Part shown: one piece after another, positions 10,296 through 64,000 of the stretch
Layout of the letters: every line of letters starts with the position of its first letter
How positions within the stretch are numbered: position 1 is the first letter of the stretch
NCBI GenBank assembly: GCA_965222235.1
Contig: OZ244939.1
Location: 493,942 to 557,941, forward strand
DNA length: 64,000 nt
Direction of reading: 5' to 3'
Source of the DNA: Minisyncoccota bacterium
GTDB lineage: Bacteria > Patescibacteriota > Minisyncoccia > Phycocordibacterales > JABAAK01
The notes under the pieces: generated by a model
What the model was told of the DNA's origin: nothing
What the model saw: the letters and a program-made list of their open reading frames with translations, nothing else
Database searches by the model: none
Translations under genes and position numbers: made by a program

Positions 10296-11439
10296 ACATT
10301 CAAACTTCTAATTGAACACCTGTCAGTTTGTAATATGCCATCCTCTGGAGATTGACACCGGTCATGCGGTAGAATACCTCGTAAGGGGTCAGACCAGTAA
10401 GGCGTTTCCTGGGACGGGTATTCAATAGGTACTCAACCTTGGCAATGTCACGGTCATTGCTTTTGTCAAAGTCAGTCCCCTTCGGGAAACACCGACGGAA
10501 CAATCCGTTGGTGTTCTCGTTTGATCCTCTTTCATGAGAGCAGTACGGATGGGCGAAGTAGCAGGAGAGACTGAGTTCTTTTTCAACGGTGCGGTACCCC
10601 CTATTCTCCGCCCCTCTGTCCTGGGTGAGGGTCTTGCGGTATCTCGGAGGGACAGCGCGCATTCGTCTGATGATTGCCGCGTCACAGGACTCAGCGGTAC
10701 CGTCTTTTGTTTTCTCAAAGAATGCCAGACCGGTCATCTTTTCATTCATACTCTTTACCCTAACGCTGCTTTTCCTTGAGAGCATGGTGTCACCTTCCCA
10801 ATGACCGATTACCCCCTCTATCCCCGGTCTCTCCTCAATGGAGGGCAAGGCCGCTCTTCGTTCTGTTTTCTGTGTGTTTCTCACTCCTTGCCGTATGCGT
10901 CTCTTCCTTCTTCTCGGCAGAAGAGACCGTAAGTCTAGATACCCCGGTTTCACGATACCGTGTCCGCTTTGGTGAATCTGCGCATATATGAAGGTATATA
11001 TCGTCTCATGAGATACCCGCATGGTTGTGTCCTCCGGAAACTCCCGGGGAAGACGAATACTCACCTGCTCGGGAGACCATCCTTCCTCCATCTTCTCCCG
11101 CACATACCCAAGGAGTGCTCTGTCGGTCAGCACTCCTTTCCTCCCCCGGGTGTGTATCCTTTTCTCTGCTTCCCGCTGTGCCCTCAGCGCGCAGTACCGT
11201 CCGACTCCTTTTCTCGGTTTTCCCCCTATTTCCCGATGTATGGTTCCCGGTGACCTGCCCAACTCTTTCGCTATCTCCCGCAGGGATCTCTTGTCAGCAC
11301 AGTATCTCACTTCAATACTACTCCGTTCATGAATATTCAGACGGGTGAACGGTTCCCGTCTCTTTTTCTTTGCTTTTGTCATATGTCTCCAGTATTACTT
11401 GGTATATGACAGGTGTTCTATTATTTGTTTGAACTTAGG
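10296..11439 (-). mobile_element. IS30-family insertion sequence (~1.14 kb) with imperfect terminal inverted repeats
   Basis: Encodes a complete IS30 transposase. The ends share an imperfect inverted repeat with a conserved core (left ...ttcaaac..gaacacctgtca..; right ..tgacaggtgttc..gtttgaac..). The right-end 51 bp recurs identically at 20718-20768. Confidence 0.75.
10300..11382 (-). CDS. IS30-family DDE transposase
   Basis: N-terminal HTH followed by a DDE region with the IS30 signature IGHWEGDTM ... LTQDRGAEN ... SNENTNGLFRRCFPKGTDF. Confidence 0.9.
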   Translation of the reverse strand: MTKAKKKRREPFTRLNIHERSSIEVRYCADKRSLREIAKELGRSPGTIHREIGGKPRKGVGRYCALRAQREAEKRIHTRGRKGVLTDRALLGYVREKMEEGWSPEQVSIRLPREFPEDTTMRVSHETIYTFIYAQIHQSGHGIVKPGYLDLRSLLPRRRKRRIRQGVRNTQKTERRAALPSIEERPGIEGVIGHWEGDTMLSRKSSVRVKSMNEKMTGLAFFEKTKDGTAESCDAAIIRRMRAVPPRYRKTLTQDRGAENRGYRTVEKELSLSCYFAHPYCSHERGSNENTNGLFRRCFPKGTDFDKSNDRDIAKVEYLLNTRPRKRLTGLTPYEVFYRMTGVNLQRMAYYKLTGVQLEV

Positions 11440-13203: not shown

Positions 13204-14235
13204 TTATTCGTTAATTTTTTTCCGTATTTCCCGCTCAAGATCATGTTTGAGCTTGGTGTTTTCCGCAAGGGTCGTGCGCGCCGCGTCATAGCCGCGGCCC
13301 AGTTTCTCCTCGCCGTATGAATATGACGCACCGCCTTTCTTCTCAACCAGTCCGTATTTTTCTCCGAGCGCAAGCAGTTCACCCTCGCGGGTGATGCCCT
13401 CGTTGTACATCAGGTCAAACTCGGCGGTGCGATACGGCGCACCGACCTTATTCTTCACCACTTTGACACGCACCCGGTTGCCTTTCACTTCATCGCCCTT
13501 CTTGATCTGTGCGATGCGCCGCACATCCATTCTCAGCGAGCTGTAGAATTTCAGCGCCTTGCCGCCCGGGGTGGTTTCTGGATTGCCGAACATAACGCCG
13601 ATCTGCATGCGGATCTGGTTGATAAATACGATTGCCGTTGAGGAACGGGCGACAATCGCCGTGAGCTTTCTGAGCGCCTGGCTCATCAGCCGCGCCTGGC
13701 GCCCGACATGATGTTCTCCCATATCCCCCTCAATCTCCGCCTTCGGCGTGAGCGCGGCGACAGAGTCAATGACGATGACATCCACGGTGTTGGTGCGCAC
13801 GAGCGAATCGGTAATATCCAGCGCCTGCTCTCCGGTATCCGGCTGGGATACCAGAAGATCTTTCACTTTCACGCCGATGCGACGCGCATATTCCGGATCA
13901 AGCGCGTGCTCGGCATCCACGAAAGCACACACACCGCCCAGTTTCTGTGCCTCGGCGACAATGTGGAGTGCGAGTGTTGTCTTACCGGACGATTCAGGGC
14001 CGAATATTTCAATGATTCTTCCGCGCGGCACACCGCCGACACCGATTGCGGCATCCAGTCCGAGGGAGCCGGTGGGAACCGCATTAATTTTTTGCTTCGG
14101 CATCTCGCCCATGATCATGATGGAGTCCTCGCCGAATTTTGTTTTAATATTCGCGAGTGCGTTCCGTAACACTTCGCTGTCTTTCTTCGCTTCCTTCTTA
14201 TCTCTCGTCTTCGCTGTTTTCTTCGTTGATGTCAT
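13204..14235 (-). CDS. recA: recombinase RecA with a Lys-rich N-terminal extension
   Basis: Walker [14 protein letters not shown], the L1/L2 loop regions and canonical RecA N-terminal helix ([15 protein letters not shown]). Preceded by ~20 Lys-rich residues. Confidence 0.95.
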
Positions 14236-32601: not shown

Positions 32602-35600
32602 TTACCGCGCACAATTTCCCGGGTCAGTAACACTACTACAAGTACCACCAGATATTGACCATCTTCCGTTAGAACAACGAACTGTTGCAGATCCACCGGT
32701 TTCAGTACCACAAGAACTATAGTTAATTGTATCAGTTACAGATCTAATTGATCCATTACTACCCCTTTGAACGGATCCAGAGCACCATCTTGTAGAACAG
32801 TATTTGTCTTTGCCGCTCCCGGAACATGAGGTTACTCTCCAAGATACATTTTTCCTTTCACAATCACCCGGATATCTGCAAAACTTACTGCAAGTAGAAG
32901 TGGCATCCTTACAACCAACTCCTCCCCAGAAACCAAATCTATCTGTTCTCCATCTTACAGTGCAACTGCCACCCAAAGCTGGTTCACAACATCGTCTTTG
33001 GCCTGCATGCCCACCGCATTCATTTGTTTTACAACACGAACCAGTGGTTACAACACTTCCTCCGGGACCACAAGGATTTTTCACCACACTACACAAACTA
33101 GTGAGCCGTCTCCCCGCTGAAGCCGGACCTTGACACCTCCATTTCTCATGGGTGGAGGTGTCATGTTGGGTTGTCTGTACCGCACTCCAACCACTCTTGC
33201 ATCTGTCTCGGGTTGTACCACACCGACCAATTATACTACATGCCCCCGTCGTCTTGGTACCCGTTTTGGATCTGGATTGGCTTGTGGATTTTGAGGACGA
33301 ACAGCCCGTGCAGGAGCGTGTCCGTGTCTGGGTAAAGCTGACACCTTTACACTCTGTTGATGTCGCCGGTGTCCAGGATGTCCAGGAGCCGCAGGAGCAG
33401 GTGGAGCTGCAGCTCGTATCACTCACACTCCAGCTCCCGGTATCACACGAAAAAGTCGCCGAACCGGTATAGTAGCTTTTATCATTGGTCGCACTGAATG
33501 AGGAGCCGTGAGATTTCAGGGATACATAATCACTGCAGTTGGTGGACCAGGTCTGTCTTCCTCCGGTACATCTGCAGCCGACCGCGGAGGCAGACTTGGT
33601 GCCGGTTGTGGATCTGGATTTTGGTGTACTTGACGGACAGCCCGTGCAGGTGCGTGTCTGGGTAAGGGAGTTCCCGGAGCACGCTGTTGATCTCGCCGGT
33701 GTCCAGGAGCCGCAGGAGCAGGTGGAGCTGCAGCTCGTATCACTCACACTCCAGCTCCTGGTATCACACGAAAAAGTCGCCGAACCGGTATAGTAGCTTT
33801 TATCATTGGTCGCACTGAATGAGGAGCCGTGAGATTTCAGGGATACATAATCACTGCAGTTGGTGGACCAGGTCTGTCTTCCTCCGGTACATCTGCAGCC
33901 GACCGCGGAGGCAGACTTGGTGCCGGTTGTGGATCTGGATTTTGGTGTACTTGACGGACAGCCCGTGCAGGTGCGTGTCTGGGTAAGGGAGTTCCCGGAG
34001 CACGCTGTTGATCTCGCCGGTGTCCAGGAGCCGCAGGAGCAGGTGGAGCTGCAGCTCGTATCACTCACACTCCAGCTCCCGGTATCACACGAAAAAGTCG
34101 CCGAACCGGTATAGTAGCTTTTATCATTGGTCGCACTGAATGAGGAGCCGTGAGATTTCAGGGATACATAATCACTGCAGTTGGTGGACCAGGTCTGTCT
34201 TCCTCCGGTACATCTGCAGCCGACCGCGGAGGCAGACTTGGTGCCGGTTGTGGATCTGGATTTTGGTGTACTTGACGGACAGCCCGTGCAGGTGCGTGTC
34301 TGGGTAAGGGAGTTCCCGGAGCACGCTGTTGATCTCGCCGGTGTCCAGGAGCCGCAGGAGCAGGTGGGCGGCGCGACATATCTCTCACAGTTCTCGTCGG
34401 TATATGTCAGCACCGTGCTGCTGCAGCTGTAGGAGACGGATCCCCGGGAGCCGCCACTGGTGTCTTCAAAGGTGCCCGAGCTGCCGTGTGCGACTTTGGT
34501 ATAGTTCGGGGGGTAGCAGGTACGGCTTCCCTCTGTCCATGAGGTGGGGGTGCATGTGCAGGTTTTGGTGCCGGAGATTGTTCTGGTTTCTGTTCTGTTT
34601 GAAGCGGTGGTTGTGGTACCGTTTTCTCTGCTGCACTCAGTGCCGCCGTTCCGTGGTGATGGGTTATTACACCTGCGGGTCTGGGTGACCGTGTCCGTTG
34701 AGCAGGTCAGCGAGGTTGAGGGGGTCCAGGAGGACCAGCCGCCGTGTGTCACAACCGGCGCGACATATCTCTCACAGTTCTCGTCGGTATATGTCAGCAC
34801 CGTGCTGCTGCAGCTGTAGGAGACGGATCCCCGGGAGCCGCCACTGGTGTCTTCAAAGGTGCCCGAGCTGCCGTGTGCGACTTTGGTATAGTTCGGGGGG
34901 TAGCAGGTACGGCTTCCCTCTGTCCATGAGGTGGGGGTGCATGTGCAGGTTTTGGTGCCGGAGACCTCCTCCTGTTCTATACCACAGGCACTGCCGGAGG
35001 GACAGGTGCGGGTCTGGGTGACCGTGTCCGTTGAGCAGGTCAGCGAGGTTGAGGGGGTCCAGGAGCTGCAGGAGCTCTCAATACATCGGTTCCGTGAGGC
35101 GGAGCAGGTTGGTGAATGTCCGTCGCAGGTTCCTTCACATACCCAGTTATAGGTATAGGTACCGTCAGGAGCAGCAGCGTCATTAGCGTTGCCGGCGGCG
35201 CATTGATTCCTGCCGGAGCCACATTGACCGGCAACGGGTGTACAGTGCGTATGCGATTTTTCACACAAACTGGAAGATATTCCGCTCGGGTGATATTCGA
35301 AGAAGGAGCACAGTTCTTCGGCGGTGGTATTGCCGACAAAGACATCACTGTTGGTATTGTTAGTGATATTTCTGCATCGCCACACACCGTTATGCGTTGC
35401 TGATACCTCCTCGGCACTATTGGCTTCAACCCGCACCCCTCTGCCGGAAGAAACGAGACCAGGGTTTGCTATGGTGGTACAGCTTTCATTGCCATGATAC
35501 TGAGTATCAGCCGTTACCACATTGGCGGAGGACGTGGCAATCAGAATACATACAAGAGAGAAAAGTCCCAGACATAATGCCAATTTGGGATGTGCTACAT

Positions 35601-35613
35601 GCATATGTACCAT
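32602..35613 (-). CDS. secreted cysteine-rich tandem-repeat protein, the only full-length family member with ATG start and signal peptide (copy A)
   Basis: True ATG at 35613 and signal peptide MHVAHPKLALCLGLFSLVCILIATSSA, then a ~100-aa unique N-terminal region. Two ~115-aa repeats follow, then three perfect 107-aa repeats (CSCGSWTPARSTACSGNSLTQTRTCTGC...DTSCSST) plus a variant terminal unit and a unique Cys-rich C-terminal tail. Ser/Thr/Cys content is very high. Confidence 0.8.
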   Translation of the reverse strand: MVHMHVAHPKLALCLGLFSLVCILIATSSANVVTADTQYHGNESCTTIANPGLVSSGRGVRVEANSAEEVSATHNGVWRCRNITNNTNSDVFVGNTTAEELCSFFEYHPSGISSSLCEKSHTHCTPVAGQCGSGRNQCAAGNANDAAAPDGTYTYNWVCEGTCDGHSPTCSASRNRCIESSCSSWTPSTSLTCSTDTVTQTRTCPSGSACGIEQEEVSGTKTCTCTPTSWTEGSRTCYPPNYTKVAHGSSGTFEDTSGGSRGSVSYSCSSTVLTYTDENCERYVAPVVTHGGWSSWTPSTSLTCSTDTVTQTRRCNNPSPRNGGTECSRENGTTTTASNRTETRTISGTKTCTCTPTSWTEGSRTCYPPNYTKVAHGSSGTFEDTSGGSRGSVSYSCSSTVLTYTDENCERYVAPPTCSCGSWTPARSTACSGNSLTQTRTCTGCPSSTPKSRSTTGTKSASAVGCRCTGGRQTWSTNCSDYVSLKSHGSSFSATNDKSYYTGSATFSCDTGSWSVSDTSCSSTCSCGSWTPARSTACSGNSLTQTRTCTGCPSSTPKSRSTTGTKSASAVGCRCTGGRQTWSTNCSDYVSLKSHGSSFSATNDKSYYTGSATFSCDTRSWSVSDTSCSSTCSCGSWTPARSTACSGNSLTQTRTCTGCPSSTPKSRSTTGTKSASAVGCRCTGGRQTWSTNCSDYVSLKSHGSSFSATNDKSYYTGSATFSCDTGSWSVSDTSCSSTCSCGSWTSWTPATSTECKGVSFTQTRTRSCTGCSSSKSTSQSRSKTGTKTTGACSIIGRCGTTRDRCKSGWSAVQTTQHDTSTHEKWRCQGPASAGRRLTSLCSVVKNPCGPGGSVVTTGSCCKTNECGGHAGQRRCCEPALGGSCTVRWRTDRFGFWGGVGCKDATSTCSKFCRYPGDCERKNVSWRVTSCSGSGKDKYCSTRWCSGSVQRGSNGSIRSVTDTINYSSCGTETGGSATVRCSNGRWSISGGTCSSVTDPGNCAR
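33390..34420 (-). repeat. near-perfect 321-bp tandem repeat array (3 units plus flanking variant units) inside copy A
   Basis: The six-frame track shows identical ORF translations recurring with a 321-bp period on both strands (33516/33837/34158 and 33539/33860/34181). Confidence 0.85.
34797..35308 (-). repeat. inverted-repeat arm L (~512 bp, within 5' coding region of copy A)
   Basis: Near-identical in reverse complement to 35672-36183. Both strands yield identical ORF translations in the track (34931..35152 vs 35824..36045, and 35116..35403 vs 35669..35860). Confidence 0.85.
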
Positions 35614-35671
35614 ATTACTTTATTTTATACAGAAACATACACACTGATGTGTAAAAATAGAAATTTACCTA
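35309..35671 (-). promoter_or_regulatory. unique 363-bp segment between the inverted arms carrying copy A start codon, signal-peptide/N-terminal coding and upstream AT-rich putative promoter (candidate invertible segment)
   Basis: Contains A's ATG (35613) with upstream minus-strand sequence ...tgtataaaataaagtaatATG (TATAAA/TAAAGT -10-like elements). It is flanked on both sides by the ~512-bp inverted arms. Confidence 0.5.
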
Positions 35672-36183
35672 TTCTTCGAATATCACCCGAGCGGAATATC
35701 TTCCAGTTTGTGTGAAAAATCGCATACGCACTGTACACCCGTTGCCGGTCAATGTGGCTCCGGCAGGAATCAATGCGCCGCCGGCAACGCTAATGACGCT
35801 GCTGCTCCTGACGGTACCTATACCTATAACTGGGTATGTGAAGGAACCTGCGACGGACATTCACCAACCTGCTCCGCCTCACGGAACCGATGTATTGAGA
35901 GCTCCTGCAGCTCCTGGACCCCCTCAACCTCGCTGACCTGCTCAACGGACACGGTCACCCAGACCCGCACCTGTCCCTCCGGCAGTGCCTGTGGTATAGA
36001 ACAGGAGGAGGTCTCCGGCACCAAAACCTGCACATGCACCCCCACCTCATGGACAGAGGGAAGCCGTACCTGCTACCCCCCGAACTATACCAAAGTCGCA
36101 CACGGCAGCTCGGGCACCTTTGAAGACACCAGTGGCGGCTCCCGGGGATCCGTCTCCTACAGCTGCAGCAGCACGGTGCTTGA
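35672..36183 (+). repeat. inverted-repeat arm R (~512 bp, forms the 5' end of copy B)
   Basis: Reverse complement of 34797-35308. Homology begins at ttcttcgaatatcacccgag (FFEYHPSGISSSLCEKSHTHC in both genes) and ends after ...SYSCSSTVL, where A and B diverge. Confidence 0.85.
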
Positions 36184-37198
36184 ATACAGCAATGTTGACT
36201 GCCACACCGCTACCAAAGCCTGCCTCCCGACAAGACGGACCTGGCTCAATACCTGCAGTGGTATTAGTCCGGCACGGGCTCACAACAGCAGTGTTGAAGT
36301 GACCAATGATCAGTCAGGTTACACCGGCGAAGCTTTCTTTTCGTGTGATAACGGGAGCTGGAGTGTGAGTGATACGAGCTGCAGCTCCACCTGCTCCTGC
36401 GGCTCCTGGACACCGGCGAGATCAACAGCGTGCTCCGGGAACTCCCTTACCCAGACACGCACCTGCACGGGCTGTCCGTCAAGTACACCAAAATCCAGAT
36501 CCACAACCGGCACCAAGTCTGCCTCCGCGGTCGGCTGCAGATGTACCGGAGGAAGACAGACCTGGTCCACCAACTGCAGTGATTATGTATCCCTGAAATC
36601 TCACGGCTCCTCATTCAGTGCGACCAATGATAAAAGCTACTATACCGGTTCGGCGACTTTTTCGTGTGATACCGGGAGCTGGAGTGTGAGTGATACGAGC
36701 TGCAGCTCCACCTGCTCCTGCGGCTCCTGGACATCCTGGACACCGGCGACATCAACAGAGTGTAAAGGTGTCAGCTTTACCCAGACACGGACACGCTCCT
36801 GCACGGGCTGTTCGTCCTCAAAATCCACAAGCCAATCCAGATCCAAAACGGGTACCAAGACGACGGGGGCATGTAGTATAATTGGTCGGTGTGGTACAAC
36901 CCGAGACAGATGCAAGAGTGGTTGGAGTGCGGTACAGACAACCCAACATGACACCTCCACCCATGAGAAATGGAGGTGTCAAGGTCCGGCTTCAGCGGGG
37001 AGGCGGCTCACTAGTTTGTGTAGTGTGATAACTGGAGTCAGGCCCAGGTGTGGTTCTTGGAAGAGACCACATAATCCGTGTCCCCGTGGTGAAGAGCAAA
37101 ATAGCCGGAAAGCAGATACCTGTAAATATAGATGGGAATGTAGAGGGACCGGAATTTATCAAACGCAAGTCGTGTCATGCAGCCGAAAAGAAGGATAA
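35708..37198 (+). CDS. 5'-truncated paralog (copy B) of the Cys-rich repeat protein with its own distinct C-terminal tail
   Basis: The track 'M' at 35708 is TTG. The frame is open upstream only to a TGA at 35645, with no ATG or signal peptide. The body matches A residues ~100-260, then one 107-aa repeat, a variant unit and a unique tail (...CSVITGVRPRCGSWKRPHNPCPRGEE...). Confidence 0.6.
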   Translation: MCEKSHTHCTPVAGQCGSGRNQCAAGNANDAAAPDGTYTYNWVCEGTCDGHSPTCSASRNRCIESSCSSWTPSTSLTCSTDTVTQTRTCPSGSACGIEQEEVSGTKTCTCTPTSWTEGSRTCYPPNYTKVAHGSSGTFEDTSGGSRGSVSYSCSSTVLEYSNVDCHTATKACLPTRRTWLNTCSGISPARAHNSSVEVTNDQSGYTGEAFFSCDNGSWSVSDTSCSSTCSCGSWTPARSTACSGNSLTQTRTCTGCPSSTPKSRSTTGTKSASAVGCRCTGGRQTWSTNCSDYVSLKSHGSSFSATNDKSYYTGSATFSCDTGSWSVSDTSCSSTCSCGSWTSWTPATSTECKGVSFTQTRTRSCTGCSSSKSTSQSRSKTGTKTTGACSIIGRCGTTRDRCKSGWSAVQTTQHDTSTHEKWRCQGPASAGRRLTSLCSVITGVRPRCGSWKRPHNPCPRGEEQNSRKADTCKYRWECRGTGIYQTQVVSCSRKEG

Positions 37199-37293
37199 AT
37201 ATAGTAAGTATGCGTACGGAAAAACAAAATTATGCGGAATCATTGCCATGAAAACAAGTCCCGCATGTATTAAAAAATAACTACACATTAAAT

Positions 37294-38565
37294 ATGAACA
37301 AAATAATTCTAATAATTTTGCCGTTTGCGTTACTGATCATTACAGCGGTATGGTTCAACATCAGGATAAGTAGTGAGCGCGACGGAATTGAACAAACAAT
37401 ACAAGAACTGCCAGATCCGCATGAAGCACACTCAGTATCGTATCTGACAAACAACGGTATTGCACTGTTCGGCTCTCTACGACATACACACAGCGGAACA
37501 ACAGATAATCCTGAGGAGGAAGACGGGCATGATGATGAAAATGATGAAGACGACGATGCCATCTCAGAGATATTCCTCTTCTCGCCAGATAACATCCTGC
37601 TTGATTCATTACGGGACGAAACCAACACCGGAATGGGACGAAGTGTTATTGGGTTTGATGATACGCTTCTTATTTCATTCCCGGAAGCGAATGATCGTTC
37701 CGGTTTTATCGGAGTATACCGGATTACCGATGAAAAACTGAAGAAAGTCGGTGAAATCAAATCATCTGATGACGGTAATGAACTTGACTTCGGCGGATCA
37801 ATGGATATAGCCGGAACCCTGTTATTCGTTGGTGCTGATGACAGGTCGGTTAACGGCAAGGAGGAGGTTGGCGGCGTGTATATCATAGACTTGAAAAGTG
37901 GGAGGGAGGTATCGGCGTTCAGTCCGATTGTCAGTGAAGAACATGAATTCGGAGCGAAAGTATTTGCACATGCGGATACCAAAACATTGTTTGTTGCCTC
38001 CGAGGGTGTTATCAGTTCCGCAATCGGAGGCGGATCTGTGGATGTCTTTTCATACTCGGATGCCGGTGAATTGACACATCTGCAACACATTGCTCGTCCT
38101 GACAATTTTGCAGGTTTGTTTGGTCACTCACTGACGCACACGGATGACTACCTGCTCATAGGGTCTATTTCAGAGCTGGAGAACGAAGACCGGCGGATGT
38201 CAGGAACACGCGGCAGAGTGTATGTGTATAGGCGTAACGGAGATATGTACCGGTATGTCAGCCATACGGAGGGCACGGAACATTCTAACTTCGGCTTTGC
38301 GATGAAATATGATAATGATACAGATGAGATTCTCATTTCGTCACCGACAATGAACACGATAGGGGTCTATGAAATCACCCGGGACACACTGCAACTCAAA
38401 TACGAAATCATCCATGAAGCAACATTTTTTGGTCATTCCTTTGATATCAGTGGTGGGCGACTGGCATCCACTGCACTGGGCACCGAGATTGGTGACGAGA
38501 AGTTCGTCTTCTGCAGGAAGAATGGTGCTGGGAAATACACCAACTGTGTGGTGAACGGTAAATGA
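37294..38565 (+). CDS. membrane-anchored FG-GAP beta-propeller protein (paralog P1)
   Basis: ATG start, N-terminal TM anchor and an acidic tract EEEDGHDDENDEDDD. Repeated FG-x-x motifs (FGGSMDIAG, FGAKVFAH, FGHSLTHTDDYLLIGS, FGFAMKYD, FGHSFDISGGRLAS) are typical of FG-GAP/integrin-alpha-like propellers. About 70% identical to 44111..45388. Confidence 0.6.
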   Translation: MNKIILIILPFALLIITAVWFNIRISSERDGIEQTIQELPDPHEAHSVSYLTNNGIALFGSLRHTHSGTTDNPEEEDGHDDENDEDDDAISEIFLFSPDNILLDSLRDETNTGMGRSVIGFDDTLLISFPEANDRSGFIGVYRITDEKLKKVGEIKSSDDGNELDFGGSMDIAGTLLFVGADDRSVNGKEEVGGVYIIDLKSGREVSAFSPIVSEEHEFGAKVFAHADTKTLFVASEGVISSAIGGGSVDVFSYSDAGELTHLQHIARPDNFAGLFGHSLTHTDDYLLIGSISELENEDRRMSGTRGRVYVYRRNGDMYRYVSHTEGTEHSNFGFAMKYDNDTDEILISSPTMNTIGVYEITRDTLQLKYEIIHEATFFGHSFDISGGRLASTALGTEIGDEKFVFCRKNGAGKYTNCVVNGK

Positions 38566-38569
38566 CATA

Positions 38570-39682
38570 TCATCTCCTCACACATCCTATCTGATATCGA
38601 TACGCATTACCACGGCACCTCCAGTTATCGCTCCCCCAGATTCCGCCGGAGTGATCATGTTCATAACAGGTTTCAACAGCCCTATCTCTCCATCCATGAC
38701 CGCCGCTGTTGGAAGAATCATTATCCTTACACCCCGGACGACCGTCACAGAATACTGAGTAAGTTGCTGACCAATCCCTATATTGTGTCCAGCCGGAAGG
38801 ACAGTTGAGACTTTTCGGGGCTCGTGAATCGGCGGTACATATAGAAACATTACCGCATGTTTGAGGTGCTTGATGCCTTCTGCAACATCGATCACCCTTA
38901 TCGCAATTGTACCACTCTAAACAAGTTCCTGCACCACAGTCCTTACCGGTACAGGGGCGACACGCATATCTGGAACTAGAACGAGTGGCGTTATTACACT
39001 GACCGGAATAATGTCCTGTCGCCAATCTGCCACTCGGCGTTGGGTTGGAAAACTTACATATCTTACAACTCCCTGTATTATACAGAGATCCCCCGGCCGC
39101 CGCACACTCCGCCTCCCTACCATTGTTACCGCATAGATACTTTATATCACATGCCCCCGTCGTCTTGGTACCCGTTTTGGATCTGGATTGGCTTGTGGAT
39201 TTTGAGGCCGGACAGCCCGTGCAGGAGCGTGTCCGTGTCTGGGTAAAGCTGACACCTTTACACTTTGTTGATGTCGCCGGTGTCCAGGATGTCCAGGCGC
39301 CGCAGGAGCAGGTGGAGCTGCAGCTCGTATCACTCACACTCCAGCTCCCGGTATCACACGAAAAAGTCGCCGAACCGGTATAGTAGCTTTTATCATTGGT
39401 CGCACTGAATGAGGAGCCGTGAGATTTCAGGGATACATAATCACTGCAGTTGGTGGACCAGGTCTGTCTTCCTCCGGTACATCTGCAGCCGACCGCGGAG
39501 GCAGACTTGGTGCCGGTTGTGGATCTGGATTTTGGTGTACTTGACGGACAACCCGTGCAGGTGCGTGTCTGGGTAAGGGAGTTCCCGGAGCACGCTGTTG
39601 ATCTCGCCGGTGTCCAGGAGCCGCAGGAGCAGGTGGGCGGCGCGACATATCTCTCACAGTTCTCGTCGGTATATGTCAGCAC
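38570..39682 (-). CDS. 5'-truncated paralog (copy C) of the Cys-rich repeat protein with a third distinct C-terminal Cys-rich domain
   Basis: The track start at 39682 is GTG inside the family sequence (VLTYTDENCERYVAPPT). Nucleotide homology to A begins abruptly at ...cctgttctata| (A coordinate ~34965). Contains one 107-aa repeat, a variant unit and a ~190-aa unique Cys-rich tail. Confidence 0.55.
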   Translation of the reverse strand: MLTYTDENCERYVAPPTCSCGSWTPARSTACSGNSLTQTRTCTGCPSSTPKSRSTTGTKSASAVGCRCTGGRQTWSTNCSDYVSLKSHGSSFSATNDKSYYTGSATFSCDTGSWSVSDTSCSSTCSCGAWTSWTPATSTKCKGVSFTQTRTRSCTGCPASKSTSQSRSKTGTKTTGACDIKYLCGNNGREAECAAAGGSLYNTGSCKICKFSNPTPSGRLATGHYSGQCNNATRSSSRYACRPCTGKDCGAGTCLEWYNCDKGDRCCRRHQAPQTCGNVSICTADSRAPKSLNCPSGWTQYRDWSATYSVFCDGRPGCKDNDSSNSGGHGWRDRAVETCYEHDHSGGIWGSDNWRCRGNAYRYQIGCVRR

Positions 39683-39926
39683 CGTGCTGCTGCAGCTGTA
39701 GGAGACGGATCCCCGGGAGCCGCCACTGGTGTCTTCAAAGGTGCCCGAGCTGCCGTGTGCGACTTTGGTATAGTTCGGGGGGTAGCAGGTACGGCTTCCC
39801 TCTGTCCATGAGGTGGGGGTGCATGTGCAGGTTTTGGTGCCGGAGACCTCCTCCTGTTCTATATCTATAATGACTATTGCTGTGGATTCATCATGTCAGT
39901 TCATTCTATTTTGAATATGTAAAAGA

Positions 39927-39952
39927 AGAGAGCCCCCGCGTATGCGGGGGCT
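39927..39952 (-). terminator. rho-independent terminator of the subtilase gene
   Basis: agagcccccgcg-ta-tgcgggggctct is a perfect 12-bp GC-rich stem, followed on the minus strand by ttcttttac. It lies 20 nt past the subtilase stop. Confidence 0.6.
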
Positions 39953-39972
39953 CTGAAAGAGCGAGGAGCAGG

Positions 39973-41595
39973 TCAGAAACGGAGACGATATGCTGCATGG
40001 AAGTCGCTGGTGTCGCCGGCGCTGAACTGGCTGTGGTTGGCCATGATCTCGAGAGATTCATGCTCACCCAGGTTGTAGGTCGCGGCGATGCCGGCGCGGC
40101 GGTTCCATCCGTCGCTTCCCTTGATGTCAACATCTCCGAAGACGGTGTCCGCGGAGCCGCCGAGGAACTTGCTGAGGTCCCCCGACAGATTGACTGAGAA
40201 GTTGCCGTCGGTGTACACATCGTACTGCCCGCTGAATCCGAGTGCCCGACCCCGTGCCTTGTGGATGAGGTCGGTCGGATCAGATTGCTGCCAGGTCATC
40301 CTGACGAACAGATTCTGATGCCCGAAGTCGGCATCAAAGGACATCGCTCCGCGATACCCGAACTCACGTCCGAGACCGAAGAACTCGTTCCGGCTCCCGT
40401 ATGCCACGCGACCGAAGAGGTCGTTTGCCATGGCATATCCGACACCGGCGACATATTCGTCGTCATTGCCGGCAACAATCGGGAACAGTCCGACCGCCTT
40501 TCCGTTTTCCAGAATCGGCACACCCGGGGTGAACTGGAACAGTCCAAGAGATGTGTGGCTCAGGGTGACCTCGCGGGCATGACCGCTGTTTGCATGGGTG
40601 AATGTCCCGGAGATGCTTGCTTTCCCAGGGAATGTCATAGCCCGCATGTGCGCGGGGGTAACACTGCCGATGACACTGTCCACGCCGACCACCTGCCAGC
40701 GACCGTCACGCATGACGGTCATGCAGGTGAAGTCTGCCCGACCGAGACCTTCCAGGGCCGATTCCCTGATCGCGCAGGCTTTCGCCAGCTTGATCAGGTT
40801 GTTCCGGGAGGTGTCCGGAAACACCATCAAGACGGATCCCAGAGCAGCCGCGACCTGCGGTACGGATACCGAGGTGCCGGGAAGCACCGCGTCACCCAAC
40901 TCAAACCTGAACGGTGCATAGATGCACTGGTCACCAACACCCTCGCAGCTCACCGAATACGGGTCGCGAACAACCCGACCGTTCTCCACCGCGTATCCGG
41001 CGACGAACAGAACCCTGTCCTCCCGGATTGCGGCAAGAATGTCCGGATCGGTTATGTTCTTGAGATCAACCTCGGAATTGGGATCAATGCCGTTCTGTCC
41101 GTTGCCCGTTCCCTGGATGAGCGCAAACGGTGTTTGCTGACGATGCAGTTCTTGAAGTGCACCCCTGTCGACAGCAAATGAGCCCGAAACGATCTTGGTG
41201 GTGGACGGGATGACATCGGCGTAGACTCCTGCTGGGCCGCCGTGACCTGCGGTAAGGCTGGAATCGATGACGGTGAAAGGCTCGCCGTCGCCACAGCCGA
41301 CGATGAATGCCTTGCAGGAAATCTGTGCCATCTGGCTCGCATGACCGTTCGGGTCGTCCCGATCGGATGCAAACTCAAGGATGGTGTACATCCCCGCCAC
41401 CTCAGCAACGGTTGCCTTCAGTTCGCTCCGCGGGATGCGACCGATGCCGGGAAGTGGACCTGTACCGACGGCCGGTACTTCTGGACCCGGCGGCACTGGC
41501 GGTTTCACGGGCGGTGGATCGGTTCTGGTATTGCCACCACCACCACAACCAGCAAGGAAGAGCAGCATGAGTGCTGCGGAAAGGTATTGTTTCAC
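39973..41595 (-). CDS. subtilisin-like (S8) serine protease lipoprotein with C-terminal beta-rich domain
   Basis: Lipoprotein signal with lipobox (V/M)KQYLSAALMLLFLAGC. The start is probably GTG at 41595, preceded by a gagagga Shine-Dalgarno; the track's TTG start is at 41625. S8-like motifs: Asp region TVIDSS, His region AGHGG, oxyanion region VAGYAVENG and Ser motif GTSVSVPQVAAALGSV. A C-terminal ~170-aa domain of alternating hydrophobic residues ends in ...YRLRF. Confidence 0.55.
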   Translation of the reverse strand: MKQYLSAALMLLFLAGCGGGGNTRTDPPPVKPPVPPGPEVPAVGTGPLPGIGRIPRSELKATVAEVAGMYTILEFASDRDDPNGHASQMAQISCKAFIVGCGDGEPFTVIDSSLTAGHGGPAGVYADVIPSTTKIVSGSFAVDRGALQELHRQQTPFALIQGTGNGQNGIDPNSEVDLKNITDPDILAAIREDRVLFVAGYAVENGRVVRDPYSVSCEGVGDQCIYAPFRFELGDAVLPGTSVSVPQVAAALGSVLMVFPDTSRNNLIKLAKACAIRESALEGLGRADFTCMTVMRDGRWQVVGVDSVIGSVTPAHMRAMTFPGKASISGTFTHANSGHAREVTLSHTSLGLFQFTPGVPILENGKAVGLFPIVAGNDDEYVAGVGYAMANDLFGRVAYGSRNEFFGLGREFGYRGAMSFDADFGHQNLFVRMTWQQSDPTDLIHKARGRALGFSGQYDVYTDGNFSVNLSGDLSKFLGGSADTVFGDVDIKGSDGWNRRAGIAATYNLGEHESLEIMANHSQFSAGDTSDFHAAYRLRF

Positions 41596-41831
41596 GTCGG
41601 TTTCCTCTCGTGTGTGAATGGACAAGTATGATTTACTCTAATGCCTATTTTACCACACTATCTATTTATATACAATTTTTGTGGATTTTGCCCTGAAACC
41701 TTTTAGATACAAAGGCTATCTGTCCGTGCTGTGATGTGTCGCAGAAATCGTTTCCCAAACGGACACTGTGTCTAGAATTCTTCTCTCTTGTATGTATTCT
41801 GATTGCCGCATCCTCCACCAATGTGGCAATG

Positions 41832-44067
41832 ATGGACAGAGGGAAGCCGTACCTGCTACCCCCCGAACTATACCAAAGTCGCACACGGCAGCTCGGGCAC
41901 CTTTGAAGACACCAGTGGCGGCTCCCGGGGATCCGTCTCCTACAGCTGCAGCAGCACGGTGCTTGAATACAGCAATGTTGACTGCCACACCGCTACCAAA
42001 GCCTGCCCCCCGACAAGACGGACCTGGCTCAATACCTGCAGTGGTATTAGTCCGGCACGGGCTCACAACAGCAGTGTTGAAGTGACCAATGATCAGTCAG
42101 GTTACACCGGCGAAGCTGTCTTTTCGTGTGATAACGGGAGCTGGAGTGTGAGTGATACGAGCTGCAGCTCCACCTGCTCCTGCGGCTCCTGGACACCGGC
42201 GAGATCAACAGCGTGCTCCGGGAACTCCCTTACCCAGACACGCACCTGCACGGGCTGTCCGTCAAGTACACCAAAATCCAGATCCACAACCGGCACCAAG
42301 TCTGCCTCCGCGGTCGGCTGCAGATGTACCGGAGGAAGACAGACCTGGTCCACCAACTGCAGTGATTATGTATCCCTGAAATCTCACGGCTCCTCATTCA
42401 GTGCGACCAATGATAAAAGCTACTATACCGGTTCGGCGACTTTTTCGTGTGATACCGGGAGCTGGAGTGTGAGTGATACGAGCTGCAGCTCCACCTGCTC
42501 CTGCGGCTCCTGGACACCGGCGAGATCAACAGCGTGCTCCGGGAACTCCCTTACCCAGACACGCACCTGCACGGGCTGTCCGTCAAGTACACCAAAATCC
42601 AGATCCACAACCGGCACCAAGTCTGCCTCCGCGGTCGGCTGCAGATGTACCGGAGGAAGACAGACCTGGTCCACCAACTGCAGTGATTATGTATCCCTGA
42701 AATCTCACGGCTCCTCATTCAGTGCGACCAATGATAAAAGCTACTATACCGGTTCGGCGACTTTTTCGTGTGATACCGGGAGCTGGAGTGTGAGTGATAC
42801 GAGCTGCAGCTCCACCTGCTCCTGCGGCTCCTGGACACCGGCGAGATCAACAGCGTGCTCCGGGAACTCCCTTACCCAGACACGCACCTGCACGGGCTGT
42901 CCGTCAAGTACACCAAAATCCAGATCCACAACCGGCACCAAGTCTGCCTCCGCGGTCGGCTGCAGATGTACCGGAGGAAGACAGACCTGGTCCACCAACT
43001 GCAGTGATTATGTATCCCTGAAATCTCACGGCTCCTCATTCAGTGCGACCAATGATAAAAGCTACTATACCGGTTCGGCGACTTTTTCGTGTGATACCGG
43101 GAGCTGGAGTGTGAGTGATACGAGCTGCAGCTCCACCTGCTCCTGCGGCTCCTGGACACCGGCGAGATCAACAGCGTGCTCCGGGAACTCCCTTACCCAG
43201 ACACGCACCTGCACGGGCTGTCCGTCAAGTACACCAAAATCCAGATCCACAACCGGCACCAAGTCTGCCTCCGCGGTCGGCTGCAGATGTACCGGAGGAA
43301 GACAGACCTGGTCCACCAACTGCAGTGATTATGTATCCCTGAAATCTCACGGCTCCTCATTCAGTGCGACCAATGATAAAAGCTACTATACCGGTTCGGC
43401 GACTTTTTCGTGTGATACCGGGAGCTGGAGTGTGAGTGATACGAGCTGCAGCTCCACCTGCTCCTGCGGCTCCTGGACATCCTGGACACCGGCGACATCA
43501 ACAGAGTGTAAAGGTGTCAGCTTTACCCAGACACGGACACGCTCCTGCACGGGCTGTTCGTCCTCAAAATCCACAAGCCAATCCAGATCCAAAACGGGTA
43601 CCAAGACGACGGGGGCATGTAGTATAATTGGTCGGTGTGGTACAACCCGAGACAGATGCAAGAGTGGTTGGAGTGCGGTACAGACAACCCAACATGACAC
43701 CTCCACCCATGAGAAATGGAGGTGTCAAGGTCCGGCTTCAGCGGGGAGGCGGCTCACTAGTTTGTGTAGTGTGATAACTGGAGTCAGGCCCAGTTGTGGT
43801 CCTTCAACTACATATAACATTGCCAGACCATATCAATGCATTCGATGGGGTACTTGTACACAGGGTAAATCTGGTGAAAGTGTGAGCTGTTGCAAGCAAT
43901 ATAGAGGCGGGCTGGGTAGTAGCGCAACTTCTTTGTGCTCAAGTGGTGTTGGATCGGGTTGGAGAAAAAAACCCGGTGATACTACTTGTAAATGGGTTTG
44001 GGAATGTAGAGGAACTGGAGCTTACAGCAGTGAAGTTAGAGTTTGCGGGAGGAGAAAGAAAGATTAG
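41832..44067 (+). CDS. 5'-truncated paralog (copy D) of the Cys-rich repeat protein with four perfect 107-aa repeats and a fourth distinct C-terminal tail
   Basis: Nucleotide homology to A/B starts at 41832 immediately after an in-frame TGA. The track 'M' at 41959 is GTG; there is no ATG or signal peptide. Four identical 321-bp units (ORF periodicity 42102/42423/42744/43065) are followed by a variant unit and a unique tail (...CIRWGTCTQGKSGESVSCCKQYRGG...). Confidence 0.6.
42150..43440 (+). repeat. perfect 321-bp tandem repeat array (4 units) inside copy D
   Basis: The same translations recur every 321 bp on both strands in the track, and are identical to the units in copies A, B and C. Confidence 0.85.
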
Positions 44068-44110
44068 GATGATTCCGATTATTATTTATATTAATTAAAG
44101 TAAAAAACAT

Positions 44111-45388
44111 ATGACTAAAAAGAAAATAATTATCACCGTATTATCACTCGCATTGATTACCTTTGCAATGTTTGTCCTTATGGCAAACAACCGGACATCC
44201 GACACAGATATAATATATGGTCTGCCGAATCCACATGATGCACACTCGGTTTCGCACCTAACAGACGGTGGTGTTGCGCTACTCGGCTCTCTTCGACATT
44301 TGCATGAAGAGACATATTCAGAGGAGGATGAGTACGGGCACGAAAATGAAGAAGAGGAGGATGAAGAGGAAGATGACAATACCGTATCAGAAGTATTTCT
44401 CTTCTCGTCTGAAGGAATTTTACTTGATTCACTGAAAGATGAGACTAACACAGGAATGGGACGAAGTGTCGTCGGGTTTGACAATACAATCCTCATCTCA
44501 TTCCCGGAAGCGAATGATCGTTCCGGTTTTATCGGAATATACCGAGTTAGCAGCGGGAAACTTGAAAAAACTGGTGAGATCAGACCGTCTGAGGATGGTA
44601 ATGAACTTGACTTCGGTGGATCAATGGATATAGCAGGCGATCTGTTGTTCATCGGAGCTGATGACAGATCAGTTGGCGACAGAGAAGAGGTGGGCGGCGT
44701 GTATGTCTTAGATCTGAATAGCGGGAGGGAGTTGTCAATTTTCAGTCCGGATGCCGTTGAAGAGCATGAATTCGGGGCAAAAGTACTCGCGCATGAGGAT
44801 ACCGGGACATTGATTGTTGCCTCAGAAGGCATCGTTAGCGCGGTAGGCGGAGGCGGGTCTGTGGATATTTTCTCATATTCAGATGCCGGGACACTGACTT
44901 ATCTGCAGCATATTCCTCACCCCGACAACTTCGCCGGCTTGTTTGCCCATTCATTAGTACATACAGATGACCATTTGCTTATAGGATCTGTTTCAGACTT
45001 GGAGAATGTTGAGAATGAGCAATTGTCAGGAACGCACGGCAGGGTGTATATGTATAAACGAAACGGGGATTTGTACAAGTATGTCGGCTACACGCAGGGC
45101 ACAAAACACTCAGGATTTGGGTTTGAAATGAAATATGACAATGAAACAGACGAGGTTCTTATTTCTTCGCCGGCGATACACACAATAGGGGTGTATACAA
45201 TCGTACAAGATGCCCTGCGACACCAATACAACATCACCGCCAACGCAATATTCTTCGGTCATTCTTTTGATATAGAAGGCGATCGACTGGCATCCACTGC
45301 ACTGGGTATTGAGATTGGTGACGAAAAGTTCGTCTTCTGTGAAAAAACCATTACCGGTCGGTACGGCAATTGTACGGAGAAGAAATAG
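44111..45388 (+). CDS. membrane-anchored FG-GAP beta-propeller protein (paralog P2)
   Basis: ATG start, TM anchor, an acidic tract EEDEYGHENEEEEDEEEDD and the same FG-GAP-like repeat pattern as P1. Lies immediately downstream of copy D, as P1 lies downstream of copy B. Confidence 0.6.
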   Translation: MTKKKIIITVLSLALITFAMFVLMANNRTSDTDIIYGLPNPHDAHSVSHLTDGGVALLGSLRHLHEETYSEEDEYGHENEEEEDEEEDDNTVSEVFLFSSEGILLDSLKDETNTGMGRSVVGFDNTILISFPEANDRSGFIGIYRVSSGKLEKTGEIRPSEDGNELDFGGSMDIAGDLLFIGADDRSVGDREEVGGVYVLDLNSGRELSIFSPDAVEEHEFGAKVLAHEDTGTLIVASEGIVSAVGGGGSVDIFSYSDAGTLTYLQHIPHPDNFAGLFAHSLVHTDDHLLIGSVSDLENVENEQLSGTHGRVYMYKRNGDLYKYVGYTQGTKHSGFGFEMKYDNETDEVLISSPAIHTIGVYTIVQDALRHQYNITANAIFFGHSFDIEGDRLASTALGIEIGDEKFVFCEKTITGRYGNCTEKK

Positions 45389-61957: not shown

Positions 61958-64000
61958 ATGCATACCGACATGCACGCAGGCGGTCGTTCCGGCTTCACGC
62001 TCCTTGAGATGCTGATCACCATATCCATCATCGTCATCATCGTCTCGGTGGTGCTCATAAACTACACGACATTCACGAGCCGCTCCGGGCTCCGCGTCCG
62101 CGCCGCTGAGGTGGCGGAGTTCATCCGGTTCGCGCAGGAGCGCTCCGCGTCAAGCGAGCTGCTGGATACATCGGATGCGGCACTGGCGCCGACGCGCGGA
62201 TTTCAAATCGTCCGGATGAAGGTGCGCGACGGCCTGCTGAACGAATTCCGCATTGAAAAGTTCGCCGGGCCATTCACAGGATTCGCTAATTTTGACACCG
62301 CCGGTTCCGGGGATGTGCCGAAAAACCGCATCACCACCCTTCCGCCGCAGGAGGAATATTTCGTTGATGTCTGCTATATCAACACGGACGGCTCCCCCGC
62401 ATATGTCAGAAAATCTTTGAAACAGGGTTCCGCGAACTGTACATCGGCGTCGCCGACATATATGCTCTGCGGCGAGCCGAACATTTCGGTGTCCGATGAT
62501 GTTGTTGCGCTTGAAGCGGCACAACGTAACAATTTTGATGTCCATTTTTCAGTTGAGCAACCGACGCGGGAGGTGCATGCGAATATCATATCCGTGAATG
62601 ATGCCGGTGCGCTGCAATATAACGCCGGCAATGTACAGCCGAACGGCCCGTCCGAACGCGAGTCGGACATATATGAAGGTGTCCGTGTCGTCCTGATCAC
62701 ACCGACCGGACTCAGGCGCAGCGTTGATGTGTACCGCACGGGGCTGATAACGACGAAGGCGGACAACACGACGGACGGCTGCGAAAGTTTGTCCCCTCCG
62801 GGGAATCTCAGCGCAAGCATCAGCAGCGGCATCGTGACGCTGTCGTGGGACAATCCGCCCGACACTTCTATCACAACCTATCAGTATCGGGTTAGCGAAA
62901 ACGGCGGCAGTTTCGGATCGTGGTCGGGGGAGATAACGCCGAGCAGGGGTACGACACGCACTGTCTACAGTTTTGCCGGGCTGGATATTGACAATTGGTA
63001 CACTTTTGAACTGCGGGCGGTGGCTGAGACGAGCACCGGACCGGAGGCGGTGTACACTCTCGCCCGGTCGTGTGCGGCAGATTCGTCGGTAACGATCGGC
63101 ACCTGCACGGGGTCACTGCCTTCCGGCAACCACGGCAACCAGGAGTCAATTACTCCGACCGGGGGCGACGGCACGGCGACGGGAACATATATCTGCACCA
63201 ACGGTGTGTGGGCTTCAACCGATGCCGGCTGCAGACCGGGACCGCAAGACGGTCAATGCGGCGAATCGGAAGATGTGTGTCTGGGGGGCACGTCAAGCAA
63301 CGAACATGTAGATGATGATGAGATATATTACCGATGGCAGTGTCTCGGGCAGAACGACGGGGCGAACGCGCCGCAGACCTGTACCGCACTGAGACCCGGT
63401 CAGTGCAACAATTCGGTACTGAACGATTGCACCACCGGTACCTCGGCTGATATAGATGACAGCACCACACACTATCTCTGGCAGTGTACCGGCATGGGGA
63501 ATCCTAACAACTGCTCCAAACTGAGGCCGGGCGAGTGTGACGAGACAGGGCAGTACGGTTGTACGACCGGCACATCAAACCCCGACGCTGAGCCGGACAC
63601 TACTACAGACCTGAACTGGCGCTGTGACGGTGATCCGCAGTCACGTCTCTGCACCAAACCGAAACCCGGTCAGTGCTCCGATCCGCTGGTATTGAACACG
63701 TGCTCTGTCGGCAACTATGCTTTTGTGAATAACAGCACCACACACTATCTCTGGCAGTGCACTGTTGACGGAGAGGATCCGACCGACTGCTCCCTGGAAC
63801 GCCCCGGCCAGTGTTCCAACCCGTCGGTGCTGAACCAATGCAATACCGGCAGTCTGAACGACATACCGGATTCTGACGAAAACCATCTCTGGCAGTGCAC
63901 CGGTGCGGGTTCGCCGGACAACTGCTCTTTGGCACGATCAAGACCCGGTCAGTGCTCCGATCCGCTGGTATTGAACACGTGCTCTGTCGGCAACTATGCT
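61958..64000 (+). CDS. giant pilin-like protein (prepilin N-terminus + FN3-like domain + Cys-containing ~45-aa repeats), 3' end outside window
   Basis: Not in the ORF track because there is no stop within the window. Manual translation is open from the ATG at 61958 to the window end (681+ aa): MHTDMHAGGRSG|FTLLEMLITISIIVIIVSVV prepilin signal; an FN3-like segment (GNLSASISSGIVTLSWDNPP...YTFELRAVAETSTGPEAV); then repeats of the form RPGQC-x-VLN-x-C-x-G-x-DIDDS-x-HYLWQCTG-x-NC. Confidence 0.7.
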   Translation, partial: MHTDMHAGGRSGFTLLEMLITISIIVIIVSVVLINYTTFTSRSGLRVRAAEVAEFIRFAQERSASSELLDTSDAALAPTRGFQIVRMKVRDGLLNEFRIEKFAGPFTGFANFDTAGSGDVPKNRITTLPPQEEYFVDVCYINTDGSPAYVRKSLKQGSANCTSASPTYMLCGEPNISVSDDVVALEAAQRNNFDVHFSVEQPTREVHANIISVNDAGALQYNAGNVQPNGPSERESDIYEGVRVVLITPTGLRRSVDVYRTGLITTKADNTTDGCESLSPPGNLSASISSGIVTLSWDNPPDTSITTYQYRVSENGGSFGSWSGEITPSRGTTRTVYSFAGLDIDNWYTFELRAVAETSTGPEAVYTLARSCAADSSVTIGTCTGSLPSGNHGNQESITPTGGDGTATGTYICTNGVWASTDAGCRPGPQDGQCGESEDVCLGGTSSNEHVDDDEIYYRWQCLGQNDGANAPQTCTALRPGQCNNSVLNDCTTGTSADIDDSTTHYLWQCTGMGNPNNCSKLRPGECDETGQYGCTTGTSNPDAEPDTTTDLNWRCDGDPQSRLCTKPKPGQCSDPLVLNTCSVGNYAFVNNSTTHYLWQCTVDGEDPTDCSLERPGQCSNPSVLNQCNTGSLNDIPDSDENHLWQCTGAGSPDNCSLARSRPGQCSDPLVLNTCSVGNYA

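Follow-up and report, generated by a model that had tools for sequence, protein, structure and literature searches.

A stretch of 64,000 nucleotides from a Minisyncoccota bacterium (contig OZ244939.1 of assembly GCA_965222235.1, positions 493,942 to 557,941), hereafter the window, was analysed around a locus made of one complete gene (copy A) and three headless copies (B, C and D) of a cysteine-rich secreted protein, in strictly alternating orientations (A minus, B plus, C minus, D plus). The 5' end of A is bracketed by a perfect inverted repeat shared with B, further long repeats connect all the copies, the bodies of the copies evolve in concert, and all the inversions simulated between them yield in-frame products. 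The locus is read, with confidence slightly above an even chance, as an inversion shufflon driven by homologous recombination, which would swap the C-terminal tips of the protein and change the number of its repeat units. A more specific proposal is put forward tentatively, as falling somewhat short of an even chance: a recombinase-free, multi-cassette inversion shufflon in an episymbiont of the Candidate Phyla Radiation (CPR)/Patescibacteria, which would switch the tip, the unit number and the FG-GAP partner of an adhesin built from thrombospondin-repeat-like (TSR-like) and sushi-like modules, in this respect similar to modular proteins of eukaryotes.

The coordinates of the copies, of the repeats connecting them and of the neighbouring genes are collected in Table 1. 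An earlier note on the same DNA had claimed that only A possesses an ATG, a signal peptide and a unique N-terminal region, and the claim held when coordinates and frames were checked. The N-terminus of A is a hydrophobic, signal-like sequence (MVHMHVAHPKLALCLGLFSLVCILIATSSA/NV), followed by the unique head; the complete order is signal peptide, head, G, T, S', canonical TSR, S', three [T-S] units, T, G and tail A, where the letters indicate the modules described below. The protein is recorded in NCBI/ENA as P0001, with a start 3 codons later, on a 641,294-bp contig. Copy B is composed of G, T, S', S'', one [T-S] unit, T, G and tail B (unique from about 37028), and C of S', one [T-S] unit, T and tail C (unique at 38570-39126, 184 codons, Cys-rich). 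Copy D contains a partial S', S'', four [T-S] units, T, G and tail D (unique from about 43805).

All three shorter copies begin inside family sequence, and no usable start or signal peptide was found for any of them in any frame; for B, no start codon is present upstream of a TTG at 35708, and a signal peptide is absent in every frame. The strong terminator-like hairpin in front of C isolates it from the gene upstream. The three copies had previously been described as 5'-truncated and without a signal peptide, and this is correct except that D is not simply headless, since it keeps a decayed copy of the signal-peptide sequence upstream. This remnant is 84% identical to the corresponding sequence of A over 74 nt, in sense orientation, and lies in the -1 frame relative to D; the promoter-like site is found about 80 nt further upstream. 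Signal peptides belonging to B, C or D, named in the earlier note as a finding that would count against silent copies, were looked for upstream of each: none is intact in any frame, the remnant of D being out of frame. Within the same region (41649-41832, plus strand) a possible GTG start is present beside the remnant, which runs out of frame into D, and a 56-codon open reading frame (ORF) could still be translated from it.

Table 1. Features of the locus and of its surroundings, in window coordinates. For the repeats, the third column gives the relative orientation of the two arms.
Feature	Coordinates	Strand or orientation	Length	Description
Copy A	32602-35613	-	1003 aa	sole complete gene, ATG start (ORF list, module parsing)
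Copy B	35648-37198	+	516 codons	headless open frame; family sequence from 35672 ('FFEYHPSG...', corresponding to A residue 104)
Copy C	38570-39895	-	441 codons	headless open frame; family sequence from 39863
Copy D	41833-44067	+	744 codons	open frame; TGA directly upstream
Head segment, candidate invertible	35305-35671	-	367 bp	bracketed exactly by the perfect A/B head repeat
A/B head repeat	34796-35304 (-), 35672-36180 (+)	inverted	509 nt	0 mismatches
A/B body repeat	B side 36338-37027	inverted	690 nt	3 mismatches
A/D body repeat	A 33085-34367 (-), D 42491-43773	inverted	1283 nt	2 mismatches
B/D repeat		direct	685 nt	2 mismatches
B/D repeat		direct	721 nt	3 mismatches
A/C repeat		direct	557 nt	2 mismatches
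B/C repeat		inverted	510 nt	14 mismatches (97% identity)
C/D repeat		inverted	510 nt	14 mismatches (97% identity)
Fossil 5' end of D	41649-41826	+		promoter-like site 41649-41676; decayed signal-peptide coding remnant 41753-41826
Terminator-like hairpin	39929-39954	-	11-bp stem	strong; 9 GC pairs, then T-rich run; between the 550-aa gene and C
FG-GAP1	37294-38565	+	423 aa	N-terminal hydrophobic anchor; 95 bp 3' of B; Pfam PF14312, 24.6 bits (cutoff 23)
FG-GAP2	44111-45388	+	425 aa	43 bp 3' of D; PF14312, 12.6 bits, below cutoff; clear paralogue of FG-GAP1
Lipoprotein-like gene	39973-41625	-	550 aa	flanked by the inverted heads of C and D
recA	13204-14235	-		Pfam RecA, E=1e-132
IS30-family transposase	10300-11382	-		NCBIfam NF033563, E=8e-65; about 21 kb from A

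The perfect inverted repeat around the 5' end of A and the strict alternation of orientations had escaped the earlier note. The left arm of this repeat corresponds to A codons 104-273 (G, T and part of S'), and the right arm is the 5' end of B. Between the arms, 58 bp of AT-rich DNA precede the ATG at 35613, and the signal peptide and the conserved head domain (codons 1-103) complete the segment. On the A side, the longest repeat comprises the three 321-bp units followed by T-G. The previously reported near-perfect DNA identity over hundreds of bp, taken to imply recombination or concerted evolution, is real, extends over repeats of up to 1283 nt (Table 1) and is far beyond chance.

The 321-bp (107-aa) unit is present three times in A, once each in B and C, and four times in D. 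The nine units vary at only 2 of 321 sites, in agreement with their earlier description as near-identical and Cys/Ser/Thr-rich; across the copies, Cys makes up 8.8-9.3% of the residues and Ser plus Thr 29-38%. Tandem Repeats Finder reports two arrays with a period of 321 and 99% matches, at 33379-34367 (A, 3.1 copies) and 42121-43479 (D, 4.2 copies). On the strand opposite to the units, mirror ORFs of 83-112 aa ('MVDQVCLPPVHLQ...') are found at 33152-34432, 36319-36960, 39045-39701 and 42102-43706; they are by-products of the repeats, without independent support. Inside A, the single canonical TSR has on either side a copy of a 209-nt stretch made up of S' and the end of a T module (34369-34577 and 34756-34964, minus strand); the two copies are 100% identical and offer a further substrate for unequal recombination.

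In an alignment that starts at their last units, B and D agree at 100% as far as about 37013; identity then falls to about 50% in the tails and intergenic sequences, and is about 75% (70-80%) in the FG-GAP paralogs. Identical bodies beside diverged tails, diverged FG-GAP paralogs and an 84% identical signal-peptide remnant argue that the duplications are old and that the bodies have been kept identical. This pattern is strong evidence that the bodies are being homogenised by ongoing gene conversion or concerted evolution.

Inversions were simulated at the gapless inverted matches that reached 150 nt in length and 97% identity; the crossover was set in the middle of the arm. One inversion step produces 6 new arrangements. 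The simple flip of the 367-bp segment gives a head-B protein of 611 aa; the other one-step products are chimeras of the A head with tail B (740, 792 and 899 aa) or with tail D (1154 and 1261 aa). Each one-step product is then directly followed by FG-GAP1, if it ends in tail B, or by FG-GAP2, if it ends in tail D. A second step adds proteins with tail C (641 and 770 aa) and versions of the tail-A protein that contain 1-6 units. Altogether, 21 distinct expressed proteins result from up to two steps, none of them out of frame and each terminated by a natural stop; the four tails are all reachable, and the number of units in the simulated products ranges from 1 to 6.

According to the proposed mechanism, a single segment carrying the start, the signal peptide, the head and a putative promoter would serve four alternative bodies with tails A-D. 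Homologous recombination between inverted copies, presumably RecA-dependent, would invert the DNA lying between them, and each inversion would fuse the head to another body and tail and alter the number of 107-aa units; in the case of tails B and D, the cognate FG-GAP gene would in addition become the immediate downstream neighbour. In the simplest switch, the 367-bp head segment would turn over between A and B by means of the perfect 509-nt inverted repeat. Gene conversion accompanying the exchanges would keep the bodies identical. The product would be a modular, disulfide-rich, secreted or surface protein, formed by a signal peptide, the head, arrays of G, TSR-like and sushi-like modules and a variable Cys-rich tail. 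Inversions presumably occur at a useful frequency, and a promoter is expected within, or symmetrically around, the head segment. The variable C-terminal tip may mediate binding, for example to host cells, in which case switching might change specificity or antigenicity.

No tyrosine or serine recombinase was found among the window ORFs of at least 200 aa searched against Pfam and NCBIfam, where RecA and the IS30 transposase were the only recombination-related hits. Since recA is present and such recombinases are lacking among the scanned ORFs, RecA-dependent recombination, as in the sap system of Campylobacter fetus discussed below, appears to be the most economical mechanism. No evidence was found tying the IS30 transposase to the cassette locus.

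The repeat unit had not been recognised as a described domain. This is supported in that neither the modules nor the tails match Pfam or NCBIfam in the profile searches, which the earlier note had proposed for unit and tails; it needs correction in that the 107-aa unit resolves into a TSR-like module (T) and a sushi/complement control protein (CCP)-like module (S). T and S were modelled separately, because a joint alignment of the 107-aa unit placed S fragments onto T. T is about 45 aa long, with the pattern W.P..S..C....TQTRT...GTK, and S is about 57 aa long, with the variants S' and S''; a third module, G, of about 50 aa, follows the pattern CG....C ... W.C.G......C. The canonical TSR is present in single copy, in A only. 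With the TSP1 profile (PF00090), no Pfam match was obtained at E<=10 for either the canonical TSR segment or the T module, and S had no significant Foldseek match in PDB. Eukaryotic proteins with TSP1 (TSR) and sushi/CCP modules, such as properdin and complement C6/C7, are named here for comparison with the modules of the unit.

An exhaustive phmmer search with A returned 430 matches at E<=0.001. Most of the matches listed cover A residues 278-341, and they include TSP1-repeat proteins, for example an amphioxus protein; among the 150 matches listed, bacterial proteins with T, G and S number 16, 13 and 5, respectively. G, the TSR-like T and the sushi-like S are three classes of bacterial extracellular modules outside Pfam, recurring in other bacterial surface proteins and in a giant pilin-like protein of this organism. 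The latter is encoded by an ORF at 61958-64000 (plus strand), which extends past the end of the window; it has a prepilin-type N-terminus (GFTLLEML...), one sushi-like S and at least six G modules. The sharing of G and S modules by this ORF argues that such modules are an extracellular decoration in this organism.

Each copy had been reported to end in a different C-terminal domain; the four tails do differ, those of B and D being distantly related. Tails B, C and D share a terminal 'W.C.G......C', a divergent G-type motif, and tail A ends in an S-type module. The unique parts of the silent tails are open for 56 (B), 184 (C) and 97 (D) codons, and the other frames contain 1-22 stops. The open frames, together with the conserved C-terminal motif, argue that tails B-D are still used. 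Codon usage does not separate the silent tails from tail A, which is expressed and yet scores equally badly on account of the Cys/Ser/Thr/Gly bias.

The only homologue of the head among the phmmer matches listed is P0010, a protein in which a head 46-47% identical to that of A is followed by FG-GAP repeats and then by TSR-like repeats. Its gene lies on the 22.6-kb contig L002 of ENA assembly ERZ24894577, which also holds the closest RecA (87%). Directly upstream of it, on the same strand, L002 8218-9894 encodes a protein 42% identical to the 550-aa lipoprotein-like protein. The 550-aa gene and the head gene therefore form a conserved pair. The pair is in order in the relative, but here the 550-aa gene is followed by the headless C, which argues that 5' ends were lost or relocated in this lineage. 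The inverted repeat ends where the only region conserved with P0010 ends, so that the head would be constant and all the distal parts exchangeable. FG-GAP repeats, fused to the family in P0010, are found here in separate cassette-linked genes, which provides a link of the Rosetta-stone type. The comparison of architectures stops where L002 ends, inside the repeat array of P0010. The P0010 ORF ends by a frameshift in a TSR-like repeat (L002 12400-12635), and the repeats continue in another frame to the contig end; probably the real gene is longer or the assembly is imperfect there. The RecA-bearing contig of the same relative ends at the leucyl-tRNA synthetase gene, before the counterpart of the cassette locus.

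A 2-kb Logan unitig (L001) matches 39834-41861 at 100%, and includes both repeat junctions as well as the frame-shifted signal-peptide remnant of D. As it stops 30 nt into the repeats, it confirms the two junctions but cannot reveal inversions. No related locus was found when GTDB representative genomes and Joint Genome Institute (JGI) contigs, neither set including the source genome, were scanned with A and with the head alignment. In a gene-position index, A, FG-GAP1 and FG-GAP2 had no exact matches, the 550-aa gene being the only one matched.

Several observations weigh against an inversion shufflon. The 58-bp region in front of A is AT-rich, but a search for a sigma-70 consensus promoter there gave no match. 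No dedicated invertase was found among the ORFs scanned in the 64-kb window, so that the rate of switching would depend on general recombination. The direct repeats (A/C and B/D) would also permit destructive deletions. The perfect identity of the repeats could partly reflect consensus polishing in a metagenome assembly; polishing might exaggerate identity, yet it is unable to create sharp boundaries or unique flanks. No alternative arrangement or chimeric protein was found in public protein and contig collections, which hold one arrangement and in which short-read unitigs break at the repeats. The earlier view of a cassette-based surface-variation system, with an expression site and silent partial copies in both orientations, is accordingly upheld for the layout and for the evidence of recombination, switching itself being inferred. 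A last point is the fossil signal peptide of D, which suggests that B-D are decayed, once-complete paralogs rather than purpose-built cassettes.

This leads to the explanation of the locus as a cluster of three or four decaying, once-complete paralogs, in which B-D would have lost their 5' ends by deletion and would now be pseudogenes, subject to incidental conversion and devoid of functional switching. It is a serious alternative, judged unlikely on balance. It accounts for the out-of-frame remnant and the promoter-like site of D, for the lack of a recombinase encoded in the locus, and for the absence of B-D from the protein collection, as would be expected if gene calling had passed them over. 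In front of C, the junction is non-homologous and resembles the scar left by a deletion; the region 5' of A showed no significant similarity either to the region downstream of the 550-aa gene or to the intergenic region of the relative. Against this explanation, all three lesions are 5'-terminal and remove only start and export signals, and tails of up to 184 codons, at about 50% nucleotide identity or lower, are free of stops and frameshifts and keep their motif. The 509-nt repeat, moreover, coincides exactly with the head boundary, the orientations alternate strictly, and every recombinant is in frame.

A system of the pilE/pilS type, in which B-D would be silent donors copied non-reciprocally into a fixed site A with no inversion, is considered improbable. 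Silent copies without 5' ends would suit it, the near-identical bodies show that conversion occurs, and for A and C, which are in direct orientation, conversion is the only non-destructive exchange. In a self-comparison, however, the sequence 3' of tail A proved unrelated to that 3' of tails B, C and D. Because homology is found on the 5' side of each tail only, two-sided conversion cannot patch a tail into A, and a reciprocal crossover, that is, an inversion, fits better; conversion would explain changes in unit number, not the replacement of tails.

Mis-assembly of a repeat-rich gene into partial or inverted copies, or polishing of its repeats to identity, is very improbable. The locus does come from one contig of a metagenome assembly, its perfect repeats are very long, and the contig of the relative ends inside a repeat array, but flanks and tail are unique to each copy, the FG-GAP paralogs differ at about a quarter of their positions, the locus is interior to a 641-kb contig, and the independent Logan sequence reproduces part of it exactly. 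Hardly credible, finally, is a polymorphic-toxin-like organisation, with A as a delivery protein with a C-terminal effector, B-D as orphan effector cassettes (a possibility raised in the earlier note) and the FG-GAP proteins as immunity or partner proteins. In its favour, the C-termini vary beyond a conserved body, and paralogous genes come after two of the tails. No toxin, Rhs, VENN or PT-type domain or demarcation motif was found in the tails, however (Pfam, E<=10, noise only), and their modules are of the Cys-rich, binding type seen in the body. The cassettes do not trail the main gene but alternate in orientation, and the FG-GAP proteins, present after 2 of the 4 tails only, are exported repeat proteins of 423-425 aa and not small cytoplasmic immunity proteins. 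A diversity-generating retroelement was also considered as a candidate and rejected, as no reverse transcriptase is present among the ORFs scanned.

An inversion shufflon of the kind proposed would resemble several known systems in architecture and function. In Mycoplasma pulmonis, surface antigens of the vsa family are switched by inversions from one expression site. In the mba/UU172 system of Ureaplasma, an expression site with the promoter and the N-terminal part is accompanied by inverted partners lacking their 5' ends, and inversion makes chimeric genes (PMC3047005). Both share with the present locus 5'-less inverted partners, tandem repeats in the variable part, a small genome and host dependence. 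They differ in that a dedicated tyrosine recombinase acts there on specific inverted repeats of only tens of bp, where here the repeats are coding sequences of 150-1283 nt and no such enzyme was found among the scanned ORFs of the window; the protein family is also unrelated, and the organism is a CPR bacterium.

In Campylobacter fetus, the single sapA promoter is reportedly inverted between opposite S-layer gene homologues in a RecA-dependent way (Dworkin and Blaser, 1996-97). A single unique segment between opposed homologues with long stretches of identity is common to both loci, the segment here measuring 367 bp, with 509-nt arms and a putative promoter. At sap, recombination is homologous and RecA-dependent, not site-specific, and nested inversions give access to several cassettes; the same is proposed here by analogy. 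Nothing but the promoter changes place at sap, where each homologue is a complete ORF, whereas here start, signal peptide and head would move too, and the silent copies are 5'-truncated.

At the hsdS locus of Streptococcus pneumoniae (Spn556II/cod/ivr), a tyrosine recombinase gene lies inside the locus, inversions at two of the three inverted repeats (IR2/IR3) persist in a psrA mutant, without the recombinase of the locus, deletion of recA has no detectable effect, and deletions between direct repeats occur (PMC4948785). That locus is similar in having an expressed gene beside partial, silent, inverted copies, with several inverted repeats and multiple chimeric alleles; its product is the specificity subunit of a restriction-modification system and not a surface protein.

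The shufflon of R64 (PilV) and the G and C segments of phages Mu and P1 (S/U tail fibres) are inverted by the recombinases Rci, Gin and Cin, acting on sites of 19-34 bp. They, too, join a constant N-terminal part to alternative adhesin tips, changing partner or host specificity, and in Mu and P1 the switch extends from the tip to its cognate downstream gene (U/U'), the part that FG-GAP1 and FG-GAP2 would play here; recombination is, however, site-specific and the proteins are unrelated. In Neisseria pilE/pilS, Borrelia vlsE and Treponema tprK, non-reciprocal, RecA-dependent exchange affects variable segments placed between conserved ones. An expression site with promoter-less, 5'-truncated silent copies is common to these systems and to the present locus, in which, unlike them, homology is found on one side of each tail. 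As at least one defining feature sets the locus apart from every system compared, it was not assigned to any of those families.

Attachment to host cells is the presumed way of life of the CPR/Patescibacteria, whose recognition of hosts, and its variation, are little understood. In the literature searched, antigenic variation in Patescibacteria is a subject of speculation only (PMC11809585), and no cassette system was found described for the group. Within the same literature, the locus, if the reading is true, would be the first cassette-based system of surface or host-range variation described in the CPR, and would indicate that long coding inverted repeats and RecA can stand in for a dedicated invertase in a genome of 0.64 Mb. 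It offers a concrete hypothesis: one head with four exchangeable tips.

The FG-GAP genes directly 3' of B and D, and the 550-aa gene between C and D, had also gone unmentioned in the earlier note. No Pfam or PDB match was found for the 550-aa protein, which has an aromatic C-terminus (...YRLRF). With proteins named Candidatus Kaiserbacteria the RecA protein shares 82-84% identity, and the bacterium is regarded as a Kaiserbacteria-like member of the CPR. The window also encodes an ATP-cone/Mrr protein, a protein with sigma70_r4 and HARE-HTH domains, type IV pilus components and DsbA/CcdA, a gene content that fits the CPR/Patescibacteria; no rRNA, tRNA or Rfam element was found in it.

The DsbA-like/CcdA genes and the pilin-like ORF, which had been noted earlier, are real. 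Thioredoxin/DsbA-like and CcdA/DsbD genes are located at 425-1884, about 31 kb from the family genes, and in the relative at L002 3439-4640, within about 5 kb of the family gene. Their presence is consistent with a need for disulfide formation outside the cytoplasm. The isoleucyl-tRNA synthetase encoded at 3103-6648 (plus strand) carries a His_Phos_1 domain inserted between its catalytic parts, and the same fusion is present in the closest relative (L003 17090-19966).

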